Numbered from the stretch's first letter, positions 5,605-53,968 are shown. The stretch is 57,302 bases of DNA from an uncultured Candidatus Saccharibacteria bacterium (GCA_964652615.1 CAZZAT010000003.1:1-57302), one strand, 5' to 3'. Notes: generated by a model from the letters alone, not told the origin. Numbers and translations: made by a program.

Positions 5605-7152
5605 ATGGACAGCATCATTAAGCAGATAGAGAAGGAGATAGCCGCCTTTGCACCAACTCAAGGCGCAGAGGAGACGGGCGTTGTGCGCGCTGCCGGAGAC
5701 GGCATCGCAGAAATCGATGGCCTCGGTAATGCGCTCATGAGCGAAATGGTGCTTTTTGATGCAACCTTCGATCGCACTCTTGAAGAAGCTCTGAAAGACA
5801 GCGCCCCTATCTACGGCCTTCTCTTGAACCTTGAAGAGGATGGTGTGCGCGCTGCTATTTTGGGAGATGCGTCCAAAGTATATGAAGGCATGTTGGTTCG
5901 CCGTCTTGGGAAACTCCTTTCTCTTCCTGTGGGAGACTCGCTTATCGGCCGTGTCGTTAATCCGCTTGGTGAAGCGGTAGATGGCAAGGGCCCAACGGGG
6001 GCAACGAAGTTCGTTCCTATCGAGCGTGAAGCCTACGGCGTTATCGACCGTTCTCCCGTAAACGTGCCGCTTCACACGGGCATCAAAGCCATTGATGCCA
6101 TGATTCCAATTGGACGCGGCCAACGCGAGCTTATCATCGGCGACCGCGGTGTTGGTAAGACGACAATCGCTATCGATACCATTTTGAACCAGAAGTCAGA
6201 GCCGAAAGAAACTCGCCCTATCTGTATCTATGTCGCTATCGGCCAAAAGGAGAGTAAGACGGCAAAAATTGTTGCAGAACTGCAGGAGAAAGGAGCGATG
6301 GAGTACACGATTGTCGTTACAGCGCCTGCGTCTGCTCCTGCCGCCTATCAGTTCCTTGCACCGTTTGCCGGAGCAGCTATTGGCGAGCATTTCATGGAAG
6401 CTGGCAAAGATGCGCTCGTTATCTATGACGACCTCTCAAAGCAGGCGGTTGCCTATCGCCAGCTTTCTCTTCTTCTTCGTCGCCCGCCAGGACGCGAAGC
6501 ATATCCTGGCGATATCTTCTATCTCCACTCCCGTCTTCTTGAGCGAGCGGCAAAGCTTTCGAAAGAAAAGGGCGGCGGCTCTTTGACGGCACTTCCTATT
6601 ATTGAAACTCAAGAGGGTGACGTCTCTGCCTACATCCCGACCAACGTCATCTCGATTACGGACGGGCAGATCTTCCTCATCTCGGATCTCTTCAACAAAG
6701 GCATGCGCCCCGCAATTGATGTTGGTATCTCGGTGTCGCGCGTGGGAAGCTCGGCGCAGACAAAAGCGATGAAGAAGGTGTCGGGAAAGATTAAGCTTGA
6801 ACTCGCGCAGTTTCGAGAGCTTGAAGCCTTCATGCAGTTCTCCTCTGATCTTGATGAAGACACGAAGAAGCGTATCGATTCAGGACGCCGCATGACCGAA
6901 GTACTAAAGCAAGGCAACGGCAAGCCGCTCGCCTTTGAAATGGAAGCTGCAATTATCTTTGCAGCGGTAAACGGGTACTTCGATGCGCTTCCACCTGAAG
7001 ATGTTTCAAAAGCAGAACGCTCACTCCAAGACTATCTTTCTCGCGAGGCGGGAGACGCACTTGCTGCTATACGTGAGAAGAAAGAAATCGGAGAAGAAAC
7101 AGAAGCTCTGCTTCGCAAGGTGCTTGATGCGTTTGCTGCCCGTCAGAAGTAG
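5605..7152 (+). CDS. atpA: F1 subunit alpha
   Basis: [40 protein letters not shown]. Confidence 0.99.
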
Positions 7153-7157
7153 TACCT

Positions 7158-8066
7158 ATGGCTCTCAAGGATATTAAATCAAAGATTGCAGCGACGAAGC
7201 GGATGAATACCGTGACGCGCGCTATGGAAGCGGTGTCTGCCGTGAAGATGCGCAAGACGCAAGCCGCAGCATTTGCGGGGCGTCCGTATGCGCGTGCGGC
7301 GCTCTCCATTCTTGCACGCCTTTCAGGAACCGATGAAGTGCTTCGCCATCCGCTTGCAACAAAGCGCGATGCGAAACGCTTTGCACTCATCGTTATTACA
7401 AGCGATAAAGGGCTTGCCGGAGCGCTCAATTCAGGCGTCTTGAAGGCTGCTACTGAATATGTAGCCGCAAAAGAGATAGAGGCGGTAACGGTGTACGCGA
7501 TTGGCAAGAAGGGGCAGGAATATTTCTCTCGTCGCGGATATACGCTTGGTGCCTCCTATGACAACAAACGCGATGCTATCGAGCTTTCGGTTCTCGAAGC
7601 GCTTTCACACGAGGTGTCGGACGGTTTTGCTAAAGGCGCATACGATGAAGTGGTCGTTTGCTATAGCAACTTCAAGTCTACTTTTGAGCAGTTTCCAACA
7701 TTGCGCACCCTTCTTCCGCTTTCAGTAGAAGGCGTGCAGGAGCTTGTTGATGATATTCGCCCAGTAAAAGGAAAGGATGCAGCTTCTGTTGCAGTTTCCG
7801 CTCCCGCGTCCTATACCATCGAGTCGAGCGGAGATGACATTCTCGGTATTCTCGTTCCAAAACTGGTCGCTTCCTCCCTCTATCACATGCTTCTTGAAGC
7901 AAAAGCATCAGAACACTCTGCCCGCATGGTTGCCATGAAGAGCGCGTCTGATAAGTCAAAGGAGGTCGCACGCGATTTGACGCGCGTGTATAACAAGATT
8001 CGACAGGCAGCTATTACGCGGGAAGTTTCGGAAATTGTAGGAGGACGTGAAGCATTAGCGGCATGA
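7158..8066 (+). CDS. atpG: F1 subunit gamma
   Basis: ITSDKGLAGALN, SEHSARMVAM, RQAAITREVSEIV. Confidence 0.98.
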   Translation: MALKDIKSKIAATKRMNTVTRAMEAVSAVKMRKTQAAAFAGRPYARAALSILARLSGTDEVLRHPLATKRDAKRFALIVITSDKGLAGALNSGVLKAATEYVAAKEIEAVTVYAIGKKGQEYFSRRGYTLGASYDNKRDAIELSVLEALSHEVSDGFAKGAYDEVVVCYSNFKSTFEQFPTLRTLLPLSVEGVQELVDDIRPVKGKDAASVAVSAPASYTIESSGDDILGILVPKLVASSLYHMLLEAKASEHSARMVAMKSASDKSKEVARDLTRVYNKIRQAAITREVSEIVGGREALAA

Positions 8067-12333: not shown

Positions 12334-12495
12334 GAGCTGTGCGGGTACGTGGTCTGACCTTCCAGCCGCAGGCAGCCGCCTAAAAACGGTATCCACGTTG
12401 TCAGGGGAAGCGTGCTTGAGATGCACCCCCGAAGTTTTTGTTCTCATGATAGTTAAAGCAGTGAAGCCCTCACAGAAATGTGGGGGCTTTTTCTA
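12334..12495 (+). ncRNA. candidate structured non-coding RNA (possibly 6S/SsrS-like)
   Basis: Promoter at 12301, several complementary segments, terminator AAGCCCTCACA-gaaa-TGTGGGGGCTTTTT at 12464-12492, no convincing ORF. Confidence 0.45.
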
Positions 12496-12530
12496 TTTTC
12501 ATTTACTCGTTCATCCTGTACTCTCATCTG

Positions 12531-13628
12531 ATGCTTAAGATAGGTATCGTCGGACTCCCAAACGTCGGCAAATCGACGCTTTTTAATGCGCTCACCAAAG
12601 CGGCAGTGCCTGCTGAAAACTACCCGTTCTGCACCATAGACCCATCAGTGGGTGTCGTTGGGGTTCCTGACGAGCGCCTCACGAAGCTTGCAGAACTCTC
12701 ACAGAGCGAGAAGACCATTCCTGCTGCCATAGAGTTTGTTGATATTGCAGGTCTTGTGAAGGGTGCTTCTGAAGGCGAAGGGCTCGGGAATCAATTCCTT
12801 GCAAATATTCGCGAATGCGATGCGGTGCTTCAGATGGTGCGCTTTTTTGATGACCCAGATGTTACCCATGTGCACGGAGACGTTGATCCGGTGCGTGATA
12901 TTGAAGTCATTAATCTTGAACTTACGCTTGCTGACCGTGAACAGGCAGCGTCTCGCAAAGAGAAGCTTGCGCGTGAGATACGCGCAGGCGTCAAAGAAGC
13001 GGTGCTTGAAGACGCAACGCTTGCAAAGCTTTTGCAGGCTTTGGATGCAGGTAAGCTTGCGCGTTCAGTTGAGCTCACTGAAGAAGAGCGTAAATCCGTA
13101 CAACATCTCCACCTCCTTACCCTAAAGCCCATCCTCTACGCATTTAACGGCAAGACAGGAGGGCACACGCTCTCTGAAATGAATGATGGGCGTGCACAAG
13201 CTGCGTATGAATATGTAGAGTCGCTTGGTTCCTCGTATGTGCATGTAGATGCGCGCACCGAGCATGAACTAAATGATGTTGCAGAGAGCGACAAGGAAGG
13301 ATTTCGTCAGGAGCTTGGCGTGCAGGTAGACGGCCTTGTTGATCTTATTCGTGGCGCATACAAGACGCTTGGCCTCATTACCTTCTTTACCACGGGTCCA
13401 AAAGAATCACGAGCATGGACGGTATCGCTTGGTGCATCTGCTCCAGAAGCTGGCGCTAAGATTCATAACGACTTTAAGGATAAGTTCATACGCGCTGAAG
13501 TTATCGGATGGGATACACTGCTTTCTGACGGCTCATACGCTGTTGCGCGAGAAAAAGGGCATGTACGCACTGAAGGAAAGACGTACATCGTCAAAGACGG
13601 GGATGTGATGGTGTTTTTGCATTCGTAG
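12531..13628 (+). CDS. ychF: redox-regulated ATPase YchF
   Basis: GIVGLPNVGKSTLFNALT, NYPFCTIDP, DIAGLVKGASEGEGLGNQFL, C-terminal TGS domain. Confidence 0.98.
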   Translation: MLKIGIVGLPNVGKSTLFNALTKAAVPAENYPFCTIDPSVGVVGVPDERLTKLAELSQSEKTIPAAIEFVDIAGLVKGASEGEGLGNQFLANIRECDAVLQMVRFFDDPDVTHVHGDVDPVRDIEVINLELTLADREQAASRKEKLAREIRAGVKEAVLEDATLAKLLQALDAGKLARSVELTEEERKSVQHLHLLTLKPILYAFNGKTGGHTLSEMNDGRAQAAYEYVESLGSSYVHVDARTEHELNDVAESDKEGFRQELGVQVDGLVDLIRGAYKTLGLITFFTTGPKESRAWTVSLGASAPEAGAKIHNDFKDKFIRAEVIGWDTLLSDGSYAVAREKGHVRTEGKTYIVKDGDVMVFLHS

Positions 13629-13654
13629 GATTCGAAAAAACGACCACATCGCAT

Positions 13655-14101
13655 ATGAAATATTTTGCTTATGGTTCAAACATGAACCAAGAACAAATGA
13701 AAAAGAGATGTCCAGATGCAATGCTTGTTGGTCCGGCTTTTCTGCACGATTATAAAATAGCTTTTACTATTTTTTCTAAAAAAAGGAATTGTGGTTGCGC
13801 AGATATTATTCAGTCAACCGGGGATGTGGTGTGGGGCTTGCTCTATGAGGTATCAGAAAGTGACCTTATGAATTTAGATAAAGAAGAAGGGCATCCAAAT
13901 CACTATAAACGCTTCCAAGTTGAAGTTAGAGACACCAATGAACAATCCCACATAGCAGAGACCTATGAGGTTGCCACTAAAGAGGCGGATTTCCTCAAAC
14001 CTTCGAAAGAATATCTTGGTCTTATGGTTGATGCCGCGATTACTTTTAATTTTCCAGCAGAATATCGAAATTATATTTCTAAAATTGAGACTTCTGATTA
14101 G
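13655..14101 (+). CDS. gamma-glutamylcyclotransferase (AIG2-like) family protein
   Basis: YFAYGSNM, VWGLLYEV, LDKEEG..Y motifs; visibly AT-rich. Confidence 0.88.
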   Translation: MKYFAYGSNMNQEQMKKRCPDAMLVGPAFLHDYKIAFTIFSKKRNCGCADIIQSTGDVVWGLLYEVSESDLMNLDKEEGHPNHYKRFQVEVRDTNEQSHIAETYEVATKEADFLKPSKEYLGLMVDAAITFNFPAEYRNYISKIETSD

Positions 14102-14112
14102 TGGAACAAACG

Positions 14113-15078
14113 CTACGCAGCGCTCGTGTCAGACGCAGACAAAAGGAAAGCAAAAGCAGCAGACTTCTTCGGGTAGTGGGCAGACTGCTCTTTATAGTGA
14201 GGATCAAAACTACCGTCCTCCGCAGCCCGTGTCATTGCTTCAAAGACGTCATAGCCCTGCAGGTTTCGACGTGGCTTCTTGGCGAACTCTTGTACGACTG
14301 AAATCATATTTCCAATACCTGTTTGGTAGGCATTCACAAGACATAGTGAGAGAAAGGTAGTGCGAAAGGCAGCTTCGTCGTTGAAGTAGAGTTCCTGTAT
14401 CTTTGAAAGTGCTTTTCTAGCATCTTTAGTGATGATGTTGTAGCTGTCAGTGAGCAGTCTTCTCGTGAACTCCACCTGTATCTTCAGTTTCTTCATATCT
14501 GCTTGTGTATATCCATAGAGCGTATACGTTTCCGGCATTGCTTGCGCAATGAATTGTGCTCCTACACCACTTTCAAGGTCGTTTCGATACTTTGATTCTT
14601 CTGCAAACATGCCGGTTACATAGAAAGAGAGTTCTTGGCGAATATCAGGAGGGATAGCATTAGCTCCTCTCATTACTTCCTCGCGCACATAGTCTATGCG
14701 CGAGCGCCCAGCATCATCGCCTATAGTCCTTGCCCTGCCGTTTTCAGGATGAAGAGCAAGCGCAAGTTCATCGCCGCGGTACTTTTTGATGTATTCCTCT
14801 AGGCGTTCCATGAAAAGCGGGGAATCTGCCATGATAGTGAGACGTTCTTTTACCTCAAGAGGGATGCGAGAAAGCTCCTCTTCGTTCAGTACGTCTTGTG
14901 TAGGAGTGTCGGTATCAAAAAGCTCCTTAACAGTTCCGGCAACAACCGCAGCGCCGCCAAAACCTGCAAGAACACGCAGTACGCCCCGCCTTGTTGCTTT
15001 GTCGAGCTCTTCTTTTGGAGCTTCTGTCTTCTTCGTATTTCCCAAGGCTGACCCGAATAGTTCCATTTTCCGTCTCAT
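14113..15078 (-). CDS. putative exported lytic transglycosylase (SLT-like)
   Basis: RRGVL plus hydrophobic segment; AEESKY...SGVGAQFIAQAMPET and NAYQTGIG resemble SLT motifs ES / GAxGLMQxMPxT / AYNxG. Confidence 0.55.
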   Translation of the reverse strand: MRRKMELFGSALGNTKKTEAPKEELDKATRRGVLRVLAGFGGAAVVAGTVKELFDTDTPTQDVLNEEELSRIPLEVKERLTIMADSPLFMERLEEYIKKYRGDELALALHPENGRARTIGDDAGRSRIDYVREEVMRGANAIPPDIRQELSFYVTGMFAEESKYRNDLESGVGAQFIAQAMPETYTLYGYTQADMKKLKIQVEFTRRLLTDSYNIITKDARKALSKIQELYFNDEAAFRTTFLSLCLVNAYQTGIGNMISVVQEFAKKPRRNLQGYDVFEAMTRAAEDGSFDPHYKEQSAHYPKKSAAFAFLLSASDTSAA

Positions 15079-15127
15079 AGGAGAGAGTATATAGCCAAAA
15101 GGCCTTCGTGTTATAATGCACTCCACT

Positions 15128-15646
15128 ATGGCTACCCACCCTAAATTCGTCCGCTGGGCACTCCTTATCGGTATTGTGATTGCACTCAACCTCTTTTTTG
15201 TTGCAGCACGTTCTTTGGTGATTGCAGAACCGCAGTATGATGATTTTTGTCCGACAGGAGCATATGTTGATGAAGAAATGTGTATCGCGCAGGGTGGTAT
15301 GTGGGTACAAGATACCCAAAGGGAAGGTCTTCTTAATAAGGCTGGATACTGTGAATTAGGTGAACTGTACCAGAAATGCCAGCCCGTATATGAAGATGCG
15401 CGCGCAGACTACGAGATGTACGCCTTTGTTCTCATGGTAGGACTTGGTGTCCTTTCGCTTATTGCAGGTGTGATTCCTATGGGCTCCTCTATCGTTTCTT
15501 CAGGACTTTCCTATGGCGGCGTACTTGCACTTCTTATTGCAGCAGGAGGCTACTGGGGTGAAGCGGGGAATTTGGTGAAGCTTGGCATGTCGCTTGTTGC
15601 TCTTATTGCTCTCATATATGTCGGAATCAAGCGCTTTAGAGACTAA
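15128..15646 (+). CDS. hypothetical membrane protein (4 TM, Cys-containing external loop)
   Basis: One N-terminal TM, loop with four Cys, three C-terminal TMs; TATAAT upstream. Confidence 0.8.
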   Translation: MATHPKFVRWALLIGIVIALNLFFVAARSLVIAEPQYDDFCPTGAYVDEEMCIAQGGMWVQDTQREGLLNKAGYCELGELYQKCQPVYEDARADYEMYAFVLMVGLGVLSLIAGVIPMGSSIVSSGLSYGGVLALLIAAGGYWGEAGNLVKLGMSLVALIALIYVGIKRFRD

Positions 15647-15668
15647 TAAAAAAGGGTACCGTCTTGAG

Positions 15669-16157
15669 ATGTACAAAGATACAGGTGAGCCTTTGTTCAT
15701 CGACACTACCCCTGAAGGAGCTGTAAAAGAAGGGAAAGAAACAATCGAGCGCCAAGCAATTATGGCGATAGTGCGCAATCCTTCTACTAATGAATACCTT
15801 GGCCTTACGTGGAAGAAGATTGACTGGAAAACGCTTATTACCGGAGGAGTTGAAGAGGGACAAACACCCGAAGAAGCTGCGCGCGAAGAAATACTGCAGG
15901 AGACGGGATATAAAAACCTTTGCATGGTTAAGCAACTTACCAATGTGCACTCAATCTTTTATCACGGACCAAAAGGCGTGAATCGTCTCGCACACTTTAG
16001 TGTGCTGTATTTCGAACTTGAGAATGAAGAGCGAGAATCTATTACTGATGAGGAAAAGGAAAACCACGACCCTTCGTGGTTAAGTGCAGAAAAGATGGAT
16101 TCTTTTGGACTACTTCCTGCACATCAGTTCTCATGGAACGAACTTATGGGGAAGTAA
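15669..16157 (+). CDS. stand-alone NUDIX hydrolase
   Basis: Nudix-box-like GGVEEGQTPEEAAREEILQETGY. Confidence 0.85.
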   Translation: MYKDTGEPLFIDTTPEGAVKEGKETIERQAIMAIVRNPSTNEYLGLTWKKIDWKTLITGGVEEGQTPEEAAREEILQETGYKNLCMVKQLTNVHSIFYHGPKGVNRLAHFSVLYFELENEERESITDEEKENHDPSWLSAEKMDSFGLLPAHQFSWNELMGK

Positions 16158-16160
16158 CGT

Positions 16161-19049
16161 ATGGCGAAGGAACGTTTTGATCACAAAGCGATAGAGCAAG
16201 CTGCTGCAGAGAAATGGGCGGCGCAAGACCTCTATCGCTCAACTGAAGACGCAAGCAAGGAGAAAGTGTATGTGCTTGATATGTTCCCGTATCCGTCAGG
16301 TGAAGGCCTTCACGTGGGACATCCAAAAGGGTATATCGCAACCGATATCTACTCCCGCATGCAGCGGATGAAGGGAAAGGCAGTTTTGCACCCCATGGGA
16401 TGGGATGCGTTTGGCTTGCCTGCGGAAAACTACGCCTTAAAGCATAAAGTGCATCCGCGAAAAGCGGTAGAGAAGAATATTGAGAATTTCAAAGGCCAGC
16501 TTTCGCGTATTGGTTTTGATTACGACTGGTCTCGAGAAATCAATACAACAGACCCTACGTACTACCACTTCACGCAGTGGATCTTCTTGAAGTTCTTTGA
16601 GCAAGGCCTTGCCTATCAGTCTGATGAACCCATTAACTGGTGTCCGTCGTGTTTAACAGGTCTCGCAAATGAAGACCTTGATGGCACGACCTGCGAACGT
16701 TGTGGCTCTGAAGTCGAGAAGAAAAAACTCCCGCAGTGGGTACTCAAAATTCGCGAATATGCGGATCGTCTTCTCGCTGATCTTGATACGCTTGACTGGC
16801 CAGAGCACATTAAAGAAGCACAGAGGAATTGGATAGGAAGGAGCAAGGGTGCGACTATTGATTTTGCGCTCTCATTCAAGAAAAACGTTGAAGCAAACTC
16901 GTGGAAAGACAAAGACGGCAAGCCTGCGCACATCTCAGTGTTTACTACCCGTCCAGATACACTTTTCGGCGCAACCTATGTCGTACTCGCTCCAGAGCAT
17001 CCGTGGGTGCGTGCTGTCTTCGACACGCCGCATGATGATGTTATTACTAACAAAGAGGAGGTTGCAGTATATGTAGCAACGGCGAATAAGAAGACAGAGC
17101 GTGAGCGTCTTGAGAACAAAGAAAAGACTGGAGTCTGTCTTGAAGGTGTTGTGGCGATTAATCCTGCGACCAAGGAAGAGATTCCGGTATATGTTGCAGA
17201 CTATGTCCTTTCTACGTATGGCACAGGCGCAGTGATGGCGGTGCCAGCCCACGATGAGCGTGATTATGCGTTTGCGAAGAAGTTTGATCTTCCACTGCGC
17301 CAAGTGGTGGTGCCGTGCGCTGTTGATACAGGCAATCCGCCACAGGACGGTTTTCCTGAAGTAAAGCGCAACACGGTAATTGTGCACGTGCGTGATACGA
17401 CAACAGGCAAGTATGCGCTCCTTGATTGGCATGGAACGCTTGAGGGTATTACCACAGCCATTATGGGCGGTATTGAAGAAGGGCAAACACCCGAAGAGGC
17501 TGCGCTTGCTGAAATCAGAGAAGAAGCGGGACTAGAAAATGCGCGCATAGTGCGCATGGCGCCATGGATAACCGCTGCAAAGTACTGCGCATCTCATAAA
17601 CAGCAGAATCGCACTGCACATGCCTACGGTTTTCTTGCAGAAGTAGACGGACTTGGTGATCAGAAAGAAACAGATGCATACGAACAAGACACCCATACCC
17701 TTGTCTGGGTAGATGAGAAAGATATTGCTGCACGCCTCACGCCAGAGCACCAAAAGCTCGTATGGCGACTCTTAAACGATGCAGAACCTTTGACTAGTGA
17801 TGGCTATCTTATTAATTCAGGAGAATATGATGGGCGCGATAATCGGGAAGTGGCGGACGACATCATTAAGCAAGTAGGTGGCGAAGCTACGGTGCAGTAC
17901 AAAATCCAAGACTGGGTCTTTTCCCGCCAGCGTTATTGGGGAGAACCTATTCCCATCATTCATTGCCCAAAAGACGGCGCTGTTGCGGTGCCCTATGAAG
18001 ATTTGCCCGTTCTTCTTCCTGAAGTGTCGCACTATGAGCCTACCGGCACAGGAGAGTCGCCGCTTGCCGCAATTGAGTCATGGGTGAATGTACCGTGTCC
18101 TAAATGCGGTGCAGACAGCAAGCGCGAGACAAACACTATGCCGCAGTGGGCAGGCTCTTCGTGGTACTACCTGCGTTTTATGGATCCGCATAATGCGGAG
18201 GAAGCGGTTGCGCGCGAGAAGGAGCAGTACTGGGGTCCGGTGGATGTATACGTAGGAGGAGATCATGCAGTGCGCCATCTTATTTATGCGCGTTTCTGGC
18301 ATAAATTCCTGTATGACATTGGCTTGGTTTCAACAAGTGAGCCATTCAAGCGTCTCGAGTTTCTTGGCTTTATCTTAGCTGAAGACGGCAGAAAGATGAG
18401 CAAGCGCTACGGGAATGTCATCAATCCTGATGATGTGGTTGAAGAGCATGGCGCAGACGCCTTCCGCACCTATTCCATGTTCATGGGACCTTTTGAAAAC
18501 ACCATTGCATGGAGTACTGCCTCTATTAGCGGCACAGCACGCTTCATTTCGCGCGTCTATAACGCTCGCACGCTTGTGAGTGAGGAAGCGCCTTCACTTG
18601 TTGCTTTGGCGCATAAGACCGTGCAGAAAGTGGGAGAGGATATCGAAGCGTTTAAGTTCAATACGGCAGTAAGTCAGATGATGATCTTCTTGAATGCCAT
18701 TGAAAAAGAAGGAAGTGTAGGAAGAACTGAATGGAGTATGTTTGTACGTGCGCTTGCACCGTTTGCTCCTTACCTTACCGAAACGCTTTGGGAAGAGCTT
18801 GGTGAGGAAGGTAGCGTACATCATGCGTCGTGGCCTACCGTAGACGCACAGTATCTACAGCAAGACGAGGTGAAAATTGCCGTACAGGTAAACGGAAAGA
18901 GAAAGGGAGAAGTAGTGCTTTCGGTAGATGCTTCCGAAGAGGAGGCAAGAACAGCAGCCCTCTTACTCCCAGCGCTTTCTGGAGTCGAGGTCCAGAAATT
19001 CATTTATGTCCCTGCAAAAGTTATCAACATAGTCTCGAAAAAGGCCTGA
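16161..19049 (+). CDS. leuS: leucine--tRNA ligase with NUDIX insertion in the editing domain
   Basis: MFPYPSGEGLHVGH, TTRPDT, GTGAVMAVPAHDERD, SRQRYWGEPIP, KMSKR; insert ~17310-17785 with GGIEEGQTPEEAALAEIREEAGL. Confidence 0.98.
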   Translation: MAKERFDHKAIEQAAAEKWAAQDLYRSTEDASKEKVYVLDMFPYPSGEGLHVGHPKGYIATDIYSRMQRMKGKAVLHPMGWDAFGLPAENYALKHKVHPRKAVEKNIENFKGQLSRIGFDYDWSREINTTDPTYYHFTQWIFLKFFEQGLAYQSDEPINWCPSCLTGLANEDLDGTTCERCGSEVEKKKLPQWVLKIREYADRLLADLDTLDWPEHIKEAQRNWIGRSKGATIDFALSFKKNVEANSWKDKDGKPAHISVFTTRPDTLFGATYVVLAPEHPWVRAVFDTPHDDVITNKEEVAVYVATANKKTERERLENKEKTGVCLEGVVAINPATKEEIPVYVADYVLSTYGTGAVMAVPAHDERDYAFAKKFDLPLRQVVVPCAVDTGNPPQDGFPEVKRNTVIVHVRDTTTGKYALLDWHGTLEGITTAIMGGIEEGQTPEEAALAEIREEAGLENARIVRMAPWITAAKYCASHKQQNRTAHAYGFLAEVDGLGDQKETDAYEQDTHTLVWVDEKDIAARLTPEHQKLVWRLLNDAEPLTSDGYLINSGEYDGRDNREVADDIIKQVGGEATVQYKIQDWVFSRQRYWGEPIPIIHCPKDGAVAVPYEDLPVLLPEVSHYEPTGTGESPLAAIESWVNVPCPKCGADSKRETNTMPQWAGSSWYYLRFMDPHNAEEAVAREKEQYWGPVDVYVGGDHAVRHLIYARFWHKFLYDIGLVSTSEPFKRLEFLGFILAEDGRKMSKRYGNVINPDDVVEEHGADAFRTYSMFMGPFENTIAWSTASISGTARFISRVYNARTLVSEEAPSLVALAHKTVQKVGEDIEAFKFNTAVSQMMIFLNAIEKEGSVGRTEWSMFVRALAPFAPYLTETLWEELGEEGSVHHASWPTVDAQYLQQDEVKIAVQVNGKRKGEVVLSVDASEEEARTAALLLPALSGVEVQKFIYVPAKVINIVSKKA

Positions 19050-19097
19050 AACGGGGGTACTTGCGGGGTTATAGACCGTCTGGTATAATTACAACAC

Positions 19098-20171
19098 ATG
19101 ACTATGAAAGCCAAGAAATCAGCCGTTTCTTCGAAGAAGCGCTCGGGGAAGCCAGCGTTTGATAGTTCTGCGCTTATTAAAAAACTGCTTACTGATATTT
19201 CAGAGCGCGGCCGCGAAGTTCTTACGCTTCGCTTCGGGCTTGGTACCTCTGCTACGCGCGAGACCCTTGAGTCTATTGGCGAGCGCTGGAGCATTACCCG
19301 CGAGCGCGTGCGCCAGATAGAAGCATCTGCGCTTGAGGCAGTGCGCGGTTCAAGGGCGTTCAAGGATGCTGAAAAGCAGTTTAACGAGCTTGCAACGTTT
19401 GTTGATTCTCTTGGCGCAATTATTCCTGAAGACCACCTCCTTGATGAGCTTGCAGACGATGAGAAGGGCCGTAACCGCTTCCGTTTCCTCCTTGTTGTTG
19501 GTAGCGAGTTCTTTCGCGAGCGCGAAACCGATGAATTCTATGCTCGCTGGCACGTTGATCATGCAACTGCAAAGCGTGTGCACAAAGCACTCTCATCTTT
19601 GTACTCATCTCTTTCAGATACCGAAGTGCTTTCTGAAAGCGAACTCTTCAGCCGCTTTGTTGCAGAGCTGAAAGATGTTGAGACTGCATACCGCAATGAG
19701 GAGGTTTTGAAGCGCTGGCTCTCTCTTTCAAAGAATATTTCGTCTAACCCGCTTGCTGAATGGGGCAAGGCACATGCGCCGTCTATTCGCACCAAAGGTA
19801 TTCGCGATTATGCCTACCTTGTGATTAAGCGCGCTGGTGCGCCTATGCACTTCCGCGATGTGGCGAACACCATTACCGAGCTTTTTGCAAAGAAAGCCCA
19901 TGTTGCTACAACGCACAACGAGCTCATGAAGGACGAGCGCTTTGTGCTCGTAGGCCGCGGCCTCTATGCTCTCTCTGAATGGGGGTATAAGCCAGGCGTC
20001 GTACGCGATGTTATCCGCGATGTGCTTAAGGCTGGCGGTGCTATGAGCCGTGATCAGATTGTTGCCGCAGTGAAGAAGGTTCGTTATGTTAAAGACAATA
20101 CGATTCTCGTAAACCTTTCCGACCCGCGCTACTTCAAGCGCAACAAAAATGGCACCTATGCTCTTGCGTAA
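19098..20171 (+). CDS. sigma-70 region 4 plus C-terminal winged-HTH (HARE-HTH-like) protein
   Basis: LRFGL...TLESIGERWSITRERVRQIE (sigma r4); C-terminal PMHFRDVA...HNELMKDERFVLVGRGLYALSEWG; no sigma region 2 seen. Confidence 0.8.
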   Translation: MTMKAKKSAVSSKKRSGKPAFDSSALIKKLLTDISERGREVLTLRFGLGTSATRETLESIGERWSITRERVRQIEASALEAVRGSRAFKDAEKQFNELATFVDSLGAIIPEDHLLDELADDEKGRNRFRFLLVVGSEFFRERETDEFYARWHVDHATAKRVHKALSSLYSSLSDTEVLSESELFSRFVAELKDVETAYRNEEVLKRWLSLSKNISSNPLAEWGKAHAPSIRTKGIRDYAYLVIKRAGAPMHFRDVANTITELFAKKAHVATTHNELMKDERFVLVGRGLYALSEWGYKPGVVRDVIRDVLKAGGAMSRDQIVAAVKKVRYVKDNTILVNLSDPRYFKRNKNGTYALA

Positions 20172-20172
20172 G

Positions 20173-20206
20173 CAACACACGCCTCCGCAAGGAGGCGTTT
20201 TGCTTT
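20173..20206 (+). terminator. intrinsic terminator
   Basis: ACGCCTCC-gcaa-GGAGGCGT followed by TTTGCTTT. Confidence 0.7.
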
Positions 20207-20221
20207 GCTATACTTGCAGTC

Positions 20222-21577
20222 ATGGCTTCAGGCGGACCAACGCTACCGTTTTTAAAAGAACTGCAGGACGCACTTGATACTACCGGCTCAAAGGGAGGTC
20301 TTTCTGTTCCAGGCAAAGGCGTTATTGTTTCGTTTCTTGTCGTACTTCTTCTCTTTACCGCGCTTGCACCTTCCCAGTCTGACTACAATTGGTCCTTTCT
20401 TTTTCTTAGCGCACCCCTCTGGCTTCCGCTTATCGTAGGGCGTATGGCAGTACTGCGCTGGCTCCAGTACAAACGCATGGAGTTTCTTTCAGGCAAGAAG
20501 TTTGTCTTGCTTGAGATGCGTATTCCGCGCGACACCATGAAGACGCCTGCTGCCATGGAAACGGTGCTTTCAAACCTTCACTTAGGGCCAAATGAAAGTA
20601 CGTGGTACAAGAAATACTTCGTGGGAGGCTCACGACCATGGTGGTCCTTTGAGCTTGTCTCAATTGAAGGCACCATTCATTTCTATATTTGGACGCGCGA
20701 TGATTTCCGCCGTGCCGTTGAAACCTACATTTACGCCCAGTATCCTGATGTTGAAATTATTGAAGCGGCAGACTATAGCCGCCTGCTTGATCCATCACGA
20801 AAGCCGTATAAGATGGCCGCGTTTGAATTCGGACATACCGAAGCAGACCCGTATCCCATAAAAACGTATGTCGAGTACGGTCTTGATAGGCCGCCGGGAA
20901 AAGACGAGGAGCAAGTGAATCCTTTGGCGCAGGTCTTGGAACTTCTTGGATCAGCTGGTCAAGGAGAGCAGATTTGGGTGCAGATATGCGCACGCGTGAC
21001 CAAAAGCGAGAAGTTTCGTGGGAAGGTGAATGATAAAGGCAAACCCTATACCTGGAAGGACGAAGCGAAGACTGAAGTAGAAAGCATCAGAAAGAAAGGA
21101 CTTATCGAAGGCGGTAAAGATCAGAAGCTTCCTGCGCCTACTGAAATGCAAAAAGACACCATTGCATCAATTGAACGCAATATCGGCAAACCCGGATTTG
21201 ATGTGGGTATACGTGCTGTCTACTTTGCAACCGAAGAGAAGTTCTTTGGCTCCATGGGCGGCTACATTGCAAACCTCTGGAAGCCATTTGGAACGTCTGG
21301 CATGAATGGTTTTCGCACGATGCCAGGATTTTCTGATGCACCTGACTATCCATGGTTTGATCCAGGAGGAAAAAAGCAGGCAGGCGCAATGCACGAGGCA
21401 ATACAGCTCTATCGTCGTCGTGCCTTTTTCTATCCGCCGTACCGCTCTGGCTGGATGATTATGAGTAGCGAAGAGCTTGCGACTTTGTATCACGTACCTT
21501 CTGCAAACATTAAGACGACCGCCATCCCACGCATACAGTCGACGACAAGCTCTGCGCCTTCGAATCTCCCTACCTAA
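20222..21577 (+). CDS. membrane-anchored hypothetical protein of a type common in CPR
   Basis: Two N-terminal TMs; LLEMRIPR, SFELVS, IYAQYPDVEI, SEELATLYH motifs, which I associate with CPR proteins near VirD4-like ATPases (not verified). Confidence 0.8.
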   Translation: MASGGPTLPFLKELQDALDTTGSKGGLSVPGKGVIVSFLVVLLLFTALAPSQSDYNWSFLFLSAPLWLPLIVGRMAVLRWLQYKRMEFLSGKKFVLLEMRIPRDTMKTPAAMETVLSNLHLGPNESTWYKKYFVGGSRPWWSFELVSIEGTIHFYIWTRDDFRRAVETYIYAQYPDVEIIEAADYSRLLDPSRKPYKMAAFEFGHTEADPYPIKTYVEYGLDRPPGKDEEQVNPLAQVLELLGSAGQGEQIWVQICARVTKSEKFRGKVNDKGKPYTWKDEAKTEVESIRKKGLIEGGKDQKLPAPTEMQKDTIASIERNIGKPGFDVGIRAVYFATEEKFFGSMGGYIANLWKPFGTSGMNGFRTMPGFSDAPDYPWFDPGGKKQAGAMHEAIQLYRRRAFFYPPYRSGWMIMSSEELATLYHVPSANIKTTAIPRIQSTTSSAPSNLPT

Positions 21578-53050: not shown

Positions 53051-53833
53051 ATGGCTAGACGTTGGACGACGGAGGAAGAAAACAGGTACCGGAAGGAACT
53101 TGTGGAGCTATACGTACAAAAGAACCTAAGCATAGGAGAAATTGGCAAGCGCCTACATCTTACCCAGGGCTCCGTATTCAAACGAATGCAGCGTCTTGGC
53201 ATACCTTCCACACCCTTAAGAAAACAGGGATACCTGAATACCCTTAAAGAAATCTCCTTGCCGAAAAAGAGAACCGAGAAGGTCGCGGAATTCTTCGGAA
53301 TAATGCTCGGAGATGGCCATGTGTCGCATTTCCAGACCTTTGTGACGCTAGGAAATAAGGAACTTCAATATGTTTCGTATGTCGCAAACCTGATGAGGGA
53401 ATTATTTAACACTCCCAGTAAGATCTTTGTCCGAAAAGACGGGTATCGAGACGTATATATCGGTTCTGTCGTTCTTACAAAGTGGCTTAGAGATGAAGGT
53501 CTGGTATCAAATAAAGTTGCATCGCAAGTAGACGCGCCTCTATGGGTGCACCAAAAGCCGGAATACATGCGCGGCTTTCTGCGTGGATTTTTTGATACCG
53601 ATGGCTCTTTATACCGGCTTCGTTTCGGAAAGCAGATTTCATTAACGAACCATTCGTTGCCACTCTTACATTCTTTACGGAAGATGCTCCTTGCATTAGA
53701 ATACAGACCGTCTGAGGTAAGTGCGTTTCGGGTATACCTTACTCGAAAAGGCGACATGGAACGCTTTTTCAGAGAGATATGTCCTGCCAATGCAAAGCAC
53801 CTCAGACGGTTCAGAGACTTGACGCGTCGGTAG
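53051..53833 (+). mobile_element. free-standing LAGLIDADG (DOD-type) homing endonuclease with N-terminal HTH
   Basis: AEFFGIMLGDGH and RGFLRGFFDTDGS motifs; N-terminal LSIGEIGKRLHLTQGSVFKRM HTH; stop codon lies inside tRNA-Tyr. Confidence 0.88.
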
Positions 53834-53906
53834 GTAAGTGGTCAAAACATCGTGGCTGTAAACCACGCGGCGTTAGCCTTCGGAGGTTCGAATCCTCCCC
53901 GGCGCA
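53824..53906 (+). tRNA. tRNA-Tyr (GTA), CCA not encoded
   Basis: Acceptor GCGTCGG/CCGGCGC+A73, anticodon arm CGTGG-CTGTAAA-CCACG, long variable arm, T-arm GGAGG-TTCGAAT-CCTCC. Confidence 0.93.
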
Positions 53907-53968
53907 CACGAAGAAAGACCGAAGCATCTGGCTTCGGTCTTTCTTATTTCTGTGCTATAACCGACGCT

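Follow-up and report, generated by a model that had tools for sequence, protein, structure and literature searches.

Here we describe a leucyl-tRNA synthetase (LeuRS) gene, leuS, whose product carries a Nudix domain inside its CP1 editing domain, and a free Nudix gene that ends immediately upstream of it. Both genes lie in a stretch of 57,302 nucleotides (nt) from an uncultured Candidatus Saccharibacteria bacterium (GCA_964652615.1, CAZZAT010000003.1:1-57302), referred to below as the window; positions are counted from its first letter, and amino acid (aa) numbers are those of the window LeuRS unless otherwise stated. By fold and Pfam score, both modules belong to the Nudix superfamily, the embedded one to a subfamily that we call type A and the free one to a second subfamily, type B. 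This Nudix family is widespread, and its modules occur nearly exclusively within leucyl-tRNA synthetase genes or beside them. Related proteins and loci are cited by our own P and L numbers, and the features of the locus are collected in Table 1.

Table 1. Features at and around leuS in the window.
Feature	Position	Strand	Description	Evidence
Upstream membrane-protein gene	15116-15646	+	Weak DUF2157 match; syntenic with leuS in relatives	
Free type B Nudix gene	15618-16157	+	179 aa from ATG 15618; alternative start ATG 15669, 162 aa	
Nudix box of free protein, GGVEEGQTPEEAAREEILQETGY	15843-15911	+	G-x5-Q-x7-EE-I-L-QE-T-G-Y; Q at 7, E at 15, Q at 19	
leuS	16161-19049	+	Bacterial-type leucyl-tRNA synthetase, 962 aa	Open reading frame, Pfam, TIGR00396, AlphaFold2, Foldseek
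Type A Nudix module inside CP1 editing domain	17310-17801	+	LeuRS aa 384-547, 164 aa	Pfam, flank positions, AlphaFold2, subfamily hidden Markov model
Nudix box of insert, GGIEEGQTPEEAALAEIREEAGL	17466-17534	+	G-x5-Q-x7-AE-I-R-EE-A-G-L	
Loop after insert box, KYCASHKQQNR	17580-17612	+	Aromatic at +16, type A-specific Cys at +17, family-invariant K..NR	

The synthetase and its embedded module

The leuS product is a bacterial-type LeuRS by curated model score, motifs and fold. It scores 941.4 bits against the NCBIfam model TIGR00396 (leuS_bact; cut-off 548.4), the match falling in two stretches with the insert between them. The class I signatures HIGH and KMSKS are present as HVGH (aa 51-54) and KMSKR (aa 745-749), the editing motifs TTRPDT (aa 262-267) and AHDERD (aa 363-368) are intact, and the HIGH, KMSKS, TTRPDT, and AHDxRD motifs are invariant over 62 relatives. 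An AlphaFold2 model of the full-length protein, built with a 62-sequence alignment, reached a pLDDT of 87.9 and a pTM of 0.80. Using this model, Foldseek retrieved 2bte (E 6e-74) as well as 4aq7 and 5omw, with a best TM score of 0.82 (normalised to target length) to E. coli LeuRS-tRNA complexes.

A first-pass annotation, made from the sequence alone, had reported that the CP1 region is interrupted between KKFDLPLRQVV and GYLINSG by about 160 aa. These flanks were recovered at aa 373-383 and 548-554, exactly 164 aa apart; Pfam recognises NUDIX (PF00293) at aa 410-534 (E 1.2e-8; 35.5 bits vs. a cut-off of 21.1), and the Pfam editing domain PF13603 matches aa 222-386 over profile positions 1-143 of 185. 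The corresponding flanks in T. thermophilus LeuRS end at residue 363 and resume at 379, and it is the loop of about 15 residues between them (364-378) that the type A module replaces. Modelling of the full LeuRS, which the annotation had proposed as a check, returned the inserted stretch as folded (pLDDT about 89-97), with a Nudix-like order of strands and helices that matches the order of elements in the free protein.

Two other readings of the insert were considered and rejected. An assembly artefact is ruled out by three independent runs, whose contigs (word depth 11.5, 117.3, and 16.7) span positions 15400-18000 without any difference, and by the presence of the same insert architecture in more than 100 independent LeuRS clusters. 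A reading as an intein, or other self-splicing or mobile element, finds no supporting motifs: on the inserted stretch Pfam detects NUDIX only and no Hint/intein domain, there is no C-terminal HN followed by C/S/T, and type B modules start with P.F and have no junction Cys.

The free Nudix gene

The free paralog reported 3 nt ahead of leuS is likewise confirmed. Its stop codon, TAA, occupies 16155-16157, leuS begins with the ATG at 16161, and Pfam PF00293 matches its product with E 2.7e-12 (47.3 bits vs. the same cut-off). The first-pass annotation had used the ATG at 15669 as start. The ATG at 15618 is favoured here because the resulting N-terminus (MSES..ALETN) is conserved in the ortholog P0003 and because residues 8-19 are folded in the AlphaFold2 model of the free protein (pLDDT 92.7), a model for which Foldseek returned hundreds of Nudix structures at a probability of 1.00. 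From this start the gene overlaps the upstream membrane-protein gene by 29 nt (15618-15646), and an equivalent overlap is annotated in the related locus L001 (4514-5029 and 5001-5534). A scan between the membrane-protein gene, the free Nudix gene, and leuS found no promoter-like or convincing terminator-like sites, and the free Nudix gene and leuS are probably co-transcribed.

Conservation of the Nudix box

Across 280 modules of the family, the metal-ligand glutamates of the Nudix box are conserved almost without exception (E16 in 99.6%, E19 in 97%, and E20 in 100%), and the box is fully canonical (GX5EX7REUXEEXGU) in 151. Near-invariance extends to K..NR beyond the box, to a Glu further downstream (E508 in LeuRS numbering), and to a Trp. 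Positions 7 and 15 covary nearly perfectly: 158 modules have both E and R, 80 of the 82 modules with Q7 are without R, and the coupled pair is lost in about 30% of modules. E7 and R15 appear to form a coupled pair, probably a salt bridge.

Both window boxes depart from the strict pattern, as the first-pass annotation had stated. The insert has Q at position 7 (Q442), A at position 15 (A450), and all three metal ligands (E451, E454, and E455, each conserved in at least 90% of 62 LeuRS). In the free copy position 7 is likewise Q and position 15 is E in place of R; the first E of the EE pair is replaced by Q as well, which leaves two of its three metal ligands. The like deviation of the two boxes is an instance of the family-wide joint loss of E7 and R15 and thus does not reflect a private shared history.

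Retention of the ExxEE core favours real hydrolases over a pure sensor. Together with the conservation of type A inserts, which is much the same as that of the synthetases around them (mean identity 63% among the inserts vs. 67% for their backbones), it argues for metal binding and catalysis and against a decaying or purely structural domain. The free copy in the window would be the weaker enzyme candidate, owing to the Q at E19.

Type A modules also have residues of their own. C386 (17316-17318) is invariant and C476 (17586-17588), which stands in place of the aromatic residue at +17, is nearly so; several His are invariant or near-invariant, and such Cys and His are absent from type B. This set could form a metal site or a disulfide.

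Relationship between the embedded and free modules

It had been noted that the two modules share EEGQTPEEAA together with a run of identical DNA, and that their N-termini align. The shared run is the 14-mer CAAACACCCGAAGA, found at 15861 and 17484, in frame and within the Nudix box, where it lies in the most conserved motif. The N-termini do align (the BLASTP alignment covers the N-terminal extension), with the two labels exchanged in the original description: PLFIDT is the free gene's motif and PCAVDT the insert's.

Overall, the insert and the free protein are 33% identical over 150 aa (BLASTP E 8e-17), and the codon-aligned genes are 45.8% identical in nucleotides and 32% identical at third positions; synonymous sites are saturated and third positions are near random. 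Subfamily hidden Markov models separate the two clearly. The insert matches type A with E 8.7e-82 and type B with E 2.9e-34, and the free protein matches type B with E 1.5e-72 and type A with E 1.2e-24. The two modules are members of one Nudix family, but in a comparison of insert and free phylogeny, also suggested earlier and run by the neighbour-joining method, the free protein does not group with its type A neighbour. With its relatives P0003 and P0002 it lies within type B inserts of other organisms' LeuRS (nearest P0021, P0029, and P0055), and it is 45-51% identical to such inserts, as against 33% to the insert next door. Given this divergence and the separate subfamilies, type A and type B are, on sequence comparison, ancient paralogs and not the outcome of a recent duplication. 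A relic of the LeuRS flank (..QKF.LP..) in the N-terminus of the free protein, which would mark that protein as derived from leuS, was sought with an ungapped profile against shuffled sequences; the score reached p = 0.018 in the ortholog P0003 and fell short of significance in the window protein.

Distribution of the LeuRS-associated Nudix family

The 120 best clusters in a search with the whole window LeuRS are 54-70% identical to it (its own protein being 100%), and their source names belong to Patescibacteria (Parcubacteria, Paceibacterota, Minisyncoccia). An insert is present in 114; the other six are without NUDIX at the CP1 site. The neighbour-joining tree of inserts assigns 49 of the 114 to type A, up from 43 marked by an earlier rough motif, and the remaining 65 are called type B, many with a fully canonical box. 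A scan of GTDB species, with a 6-sequence alignment as query, placed the module within leuS in about 72 of the 80 best loci.

A type B profile search of 1.84 billion representatives returned 130 clusters at E<=1e-30 and 369 at E<=1e-10. Among its best 150, LeuRS and fragments of it account for about 100 and free proteins 150-210 aa long for about 40, along with a few tandem Nudix proteins, a few proteins made up of a CP1 fragment plus Nudix, and one prolyl-tRNA synthetase (ProRS). In the latter (P0261, 643 aa, class II), which is the only non-LeuRS host identified, the module lies between the anticodon-binding domain and the C-terminal domain; the family is thus not strictly LeuRS-specific. 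Type A occupies the aa-383 site in 52 of 52 cases, and type B occurs at every insertion site and also free. No free type A module was found in the sets examined, with searches biased toward type B or of low sensitivity (few matches, seemingly missing long proteins).

Some proteins carry more than one module. Two or three members of the family are present in LeuRS P0124 (1140 aa), P0125, P0126, P0131, P0133, P0143, P0151, P0155, P0221, and P0098, some in tandem in one loop, and P0128 (379 aa) consists of two tandem modules. Type A and type B are found together again, fused, in P0098 and P0133, Rosetta-stone evidence which suggests that free type B works with LeuRS.

Free genes directly abut leuS in two separate lineages: in L008 the free protein is 66% identical to that of the window and the adjacent leuS carries type A as well, and in L036 it is 41% identical and the adjacent leuS is without an insert. 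Between the membrane-protein gene and leuS, the free gene is limited to the window's lineage (window, L001/L002, and L008). Another free gene (L087, 4932-5444) lies 300 nt upstream of a different class I synthetase gene (5744-7861; 705 aa, Val/Ile/Leu-type by Pfam). The free members in L024, L029, L053, L061, and L079 have no synthetase gene nearby, and the neighbourhoods of unlinked free members are heterogeneous.

Gene order around leuS is itself conserved in Patescibacteria (window 12480-21577; L001, L004, L006, L088, and L089), and reads YchF GTPase, membrane protein, leuS, a Sigma70_r4 plus HARE-HTH protein, DUF8128, and YceG. In the window the Sigma70_r4 plus HARE-HTH protein has 357 aa (19098-20171) and DUF8128 is encoded at 20222-21577; YceG follows in relatives. 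The sole RNA gene detected across the 57-kb window is a tRNA-Tyr (GTA) at 53824-53907. In L008, the nearest GTDB relative that has a free Nudix gene upstream, the 5' part of leuS (1457-2527) reads FPYPSGDLHIGH in place of FPYPSGEGLHVGH, and masked sequence (N) comes after it; its N-terminus could be chimeric or divergent.

Gain, loss, and swapping of modules

Pairs of LeuRS with closely similar backbones can differ in what they carry. Between P0006 (type A) and P0036 (type B) identity is 87% in the backbone and 29% in the insert, between P0037 and P0043 (both type B) it is 87% and 32%, respectively, and P0083 (type B) is 82% identical in backbone to P0112, which has no insert. Close backbones with unrelated inserts, or with none, indicate that modules have been gained, lost, and swapped. 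On the module tree at least 19 changes between free and embedded states and 35 changes of site state were counted, figures that are rough given a neighbour-joining tree of a short domain. The type A insert, judged by its conservation, is an old resident of the aa-383 site.

Movement out of LeuRS is also seen. Stand-alone proteins of about 275 aa (P0277, P0282, P0283, and P0234) are colinear with aa 333-560 of the window LeuRS (E 1e-27) and keep both CP1 flanks around the Nudix module: proteins of the P0277 class consist of the C-terminal part of the CP1 editing domain with a degenerate AHDxRD, the module, and the LeuRS flank 'INS.EY'. Retention of both flanks implies that at least this class left a leuS gene. 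The P0277 gene itself (L091, 5001-5828) adjoins CYTH-HAD and CYTH genes, in a host with 25-27% GC.

The earlier proposal of a domain caught moving into or out of LeuRS therefore describes the family, in which free and embedded members are interspersed, near-identical backbones bear different modules or none, and flank-bearing proteins stand alone. It does not describe the window pair, whose members come from different subfamilies and are saturated at synonymous sites.

Candidate substrates

Structure and sequence comparisons of the modules give generic Nudix matches. The best full-length Foldseek match is an uncharacterised MutT/nudix protein of E. faecalis (2azw; E 2.7e-9, TM 0.79 target-normalised and 0.66 query-normalised), followed by NudI, T. 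thermophilus Ndx1 (an Ap6A hydrolase), ADP-ribose pyrophosphatases, and RppH. The best PDB sequence match of the insert is lupin Ap4A hydrolase (1f3y, E 2e-4), which covers the box only (residues 52-88 of the 164-aa query), and scores against the NCBIfam models of RppH were far under their cut-offs.

Aminoacyl-adenylates, which had been put forward as one possibility, seem less likely as substrates; an aminoacyl-adenylate is not a nucleoside diphosphate linked to another moiety (NDP-X) and is not a typical Nudix substrate. At +16 from the box 96% of modules have F or Y, and at +17 there is Y, F, or C; the two residues are Y and C in the insert and F and Y in the free protein, in a register taken from sequence. 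ApnA hydrolases are marked by a conserved Tyr some 17 residues beyond the box, in the X-loop (Dunn 1999, as cited in PMC5389931), the loop in which +16 would lie. Adenine dinucleoside polyphosphates (Ap4A or Ap3A) or a similar NDP-X can be offered as a first guess, with low confidence.

Proposed role of the modules and alternative explanations

Aminoacyl-tRNA synthetases (aaRS) are among the best-studied enzymes, and domains acquired by them usually signal added functions. A catalytic-looking Nudix domain within the proofreading domain of LeuRS over a large part of Patescibacteria, with free, tandem, multi-site, and ProRS-embedded relatives, is of interest mainly for its wide spread and its apparent selection for catalysis. 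If these modules act on by-products or inhibitors of the synthetase, they represent a new synthetase-coupled activity; if they are passengers, they show clearly how domains of an essential gene in reduced genomes are naturally inserted, swapped, and split off. We found no description of a Nudix domain in LeuRS, or of this Nudix family, in the full text of open-access papers and preprints, and in public databases the architecture is visible only as automatic Pfam hits.

Insertions in LeuRS also have consequences for annotation, which they mislead. Many of the LeuRS P0009, P0053, P0060, P0073, P0085, P0086, and P0087 bear only the name 'class I tRNA ligase family protein', and P0087 is called an 'alpha/beta fold hydrolase'; insertions apparently defeat the automatic naming rule for LeuRS.

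We propose, with moderate confidence, that the window holds a two-module form of a Nudix system associated with LeuRS and typical of Patescibacteria (candidate phyla radiation, CPR), composed of Mg2+-dependent hydrolases held at the synthetase. The type A module would act in cis within the CP1 loop, and type B in trans, perhaps in contact with LeuRS, or it may be merely co-expressed. Each would be a Mg2+-dependent Nudix pyrophosphohydrolase stationed at the synthetase, cleaving a nucleotide derivative that accumulates at LeuRS or interferes with it; a candidate is Ap4A or Ap3A, made from Leu-AMP and ATP or ADP, or a related NDP-X.

Several observations weigh against this proposal. The non-canonical boxes of both window copies (Q7 in both, A15 or E15, and Q19 in the free copy) may mean that one or both are impaired. 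Obligatory pairing of a type A LeuRS with an upstream free type B gene is ruled out by the close type A relatives P0005, P0007, P0009, and P0020, whose contigs, when read, have no free Nudix gene upstream of leuS. Nudix modules occupy at least four loops of LeuRS (S1 at about aa 210, S2 at about 238-258, S3 at 383, and S5 at about 645-654), and the Ser_hydrolase (PF06821), HAD_2, and Ham1 domains inserted in related LeuRS fit a permissive scaffold as well as they fit a coupling that depends on geometry. Searches of PDB, NCBIfam, and Foldseek for a substrate gave generic Nudix matches and no characterised close relative from which a function could be carried over. LeuRS is not known as one of the strongest producers of Ap4A. 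Finally, all trees are neighbour-joining trees of short domains, which weakens the claims based on them.

A Ser_hydrolase/alpha-beta hydrolase is present in the LeuRS of P0066, P0081, P0087, P0108, P0144, P0174, P0179, P0210, and P0247, HAD_2 in P0186 and P0201, and Ham1/ITPase in P0093 and P0152. The sites, in window numbering, are surface loops at about aa 238-258, 604-609, and 645-654, and near KMSKS; present in addition to the Nudix module, these domains bring LeuRS to 1120-1330 aa.

Insertions at several loops (S1, S2, S3, and S5), together with the fact that all other inserted families are small-molecule hydrolases, lend some weight to the idea that the modules are passengers, ordinary nucleotide house-cleaning enzymes that, in streamlined CPR genomes, became fused to a protein as large, essential, and constitutively expressed as LeuRS, at surface loops that tolerate insertion; the link to LeuRS would then be historical (a recombination hot spot), not mechanistic, and the free gene a by-product. 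Presence, absence, and swapping of modules among backbones 82-87% identical, and free members located away from aaRS genes, fit the same passenger idea, which we regard as a serious but unlikely possibility. A neutral scaffold leaves unexplained why the Nudix family is nearly exclusive to LeuRS (about 100 of the top 150, with one ProRS otherwise), why free genes abut leuS in two lineages, and why type A is conserved like the synthetase core and fixed at one site; the recurrent A-plus-B fusions also speak against it. That the window pair is instead a recent duplication or transfer still in progress, as adjacency, the common EEGQTPEEAA, and the 14-nt identical run might suggest, is scarcely credible in view of the divergence and subfamily placement set out above, the position of the 14-mer, and the existence of the same free-gene-plus-leuS arrangement in a relative whose free protein is 75% identical.

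The type A module, and perhaps the free copy in the window as well, might not be catalytic at all, and might serve as a structural, tRNA-binding, or nucleotide-sensing domain that modulates movement of CP1 or editing. In type A the E7/R15 pair is missing, as is often the box's G, and C386, C476, and several His are among the invariant residues peculiar to it; in the free copy E19 is replaced by Q, and non-enzymatic members are known in the Nudix clan (PMC5389931). We nevertheless hold such a role to be highly improbable, since E16, E19, and E20, together with E508, are invariant or nearly so in type A, a pattern hard to explain other than by metal binding and catalysis. Rapid turnover of modules and the several classes of hydrolase gathered on one target could alternatively reflect an arms race in which the hydrolases detoxify an inhibitor of LeuRS (an aminoacyl-adenylate mimic of the agrocin-84/microcin-C type), or repair a toxin-modified tRNA 3' end, at the target itself. 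The CP1 domain of LeuRS handles the CCA end of tRNA, which makes the placement suitable, and IleRS with GNAT (NF040702) offers a precedent for a small-molecule-modifying domain in an aaRS. The case is, however, wholly circumstantial, with no toxin or inhibitor gene seen; type A evolves slowly, unlike an arms-race locus, and adenylate mimics of the phosphoramidate and sulfamoyl kinds do not count among typical Nudix substrates. We consider protection of this kind very unlikely.

Returning to hydrolases held at the synthetase, a bolder version of that proposal can be formulated, although we think it distinctly unlikely. Patescibacterial LeuRS may have become a platform to which a dedicated Nudix hydrolase is recruited, in cis or in trans (with Ser-hydrolase, HAD, and Ham1 in relatives) for a previously unknown synthetase-linked reaction. 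Candidate reactions include destruction of a toxic nucleotide or inhibitor specific to LeuRS, unblocking of the tRNA 3' end, and obligatory recycling of adenylate-derived by-products in nucleotide-scavenging symbionts. Such a platform, if real, would constitute a new layer of aaRS quality control or defence.

Comparison with known systems

Canonical bacterial LeuRS (T. thermophilus 2bte, E. coli 4aq7, and N. gonorrhoeae 7nu8) have the same domain order as the window LeuRS and are 32-36% identical to it. The solved LeuRS chains matched by Foldseek (621-876 residues) have a loop of 15-20 residues and no added domain at the insertion site, whereas the window LeuRS has a folded domain of 164 residues there. 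The modules resemble the Nudix superfamily at large (PF00293; 2azw, NudI, Ndx1, and the ADP-ribose pyrophosphatases) in their alpha/beta/alpha fold and ExxEE box, and have an N-terminal beta extension as in the ADP-ribose pyrophosphatases; they differ in their own invariant K..NR, E, and W, in the loss of E7/R15 in about 30%, and in lying almost always in or adjoining LeuRS. With the Ap4A/ApnA Nudix hydrolases (lupin 1f3y, human NUDT2, and bacterial RppH/NudH) they may have in common an X-loop aromatic residue about 16-17 positions after the box. Similarity to these enzymes is restricted to the box, and the loop residue of the modules is F or Y (C in type A), with the register taken from sequence alone.

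Among synthetases, the IleRS with GNAT of NCBIfam NF040702 (ileS_w_GNAT) is likewise a class Ia enzyme with an unrelated small-molecule enzyme domain; both the domain family and the synthetase are different, and the Nudix module is placed in CP1, occurs free as well, and is found in several loops and in multiple copies. In ProRS INS and YbaK/ProXp, and in the AlaRS editing domain and AlaX, one module is known both embedded and free, sometimes in the same genome, and these are aminoacyl-tRNA deacylases with a proven proofreading role. The Nudix modules parallel them in being both embedded and free, and proteins of the P0277 class, with a CP1 fragment plus Nudix, resemble spin-offs of this kind; the window module has the fold of a Nudix pyrophosphohydrolase, unlike the INS/YbaK and AlaX deacylases.

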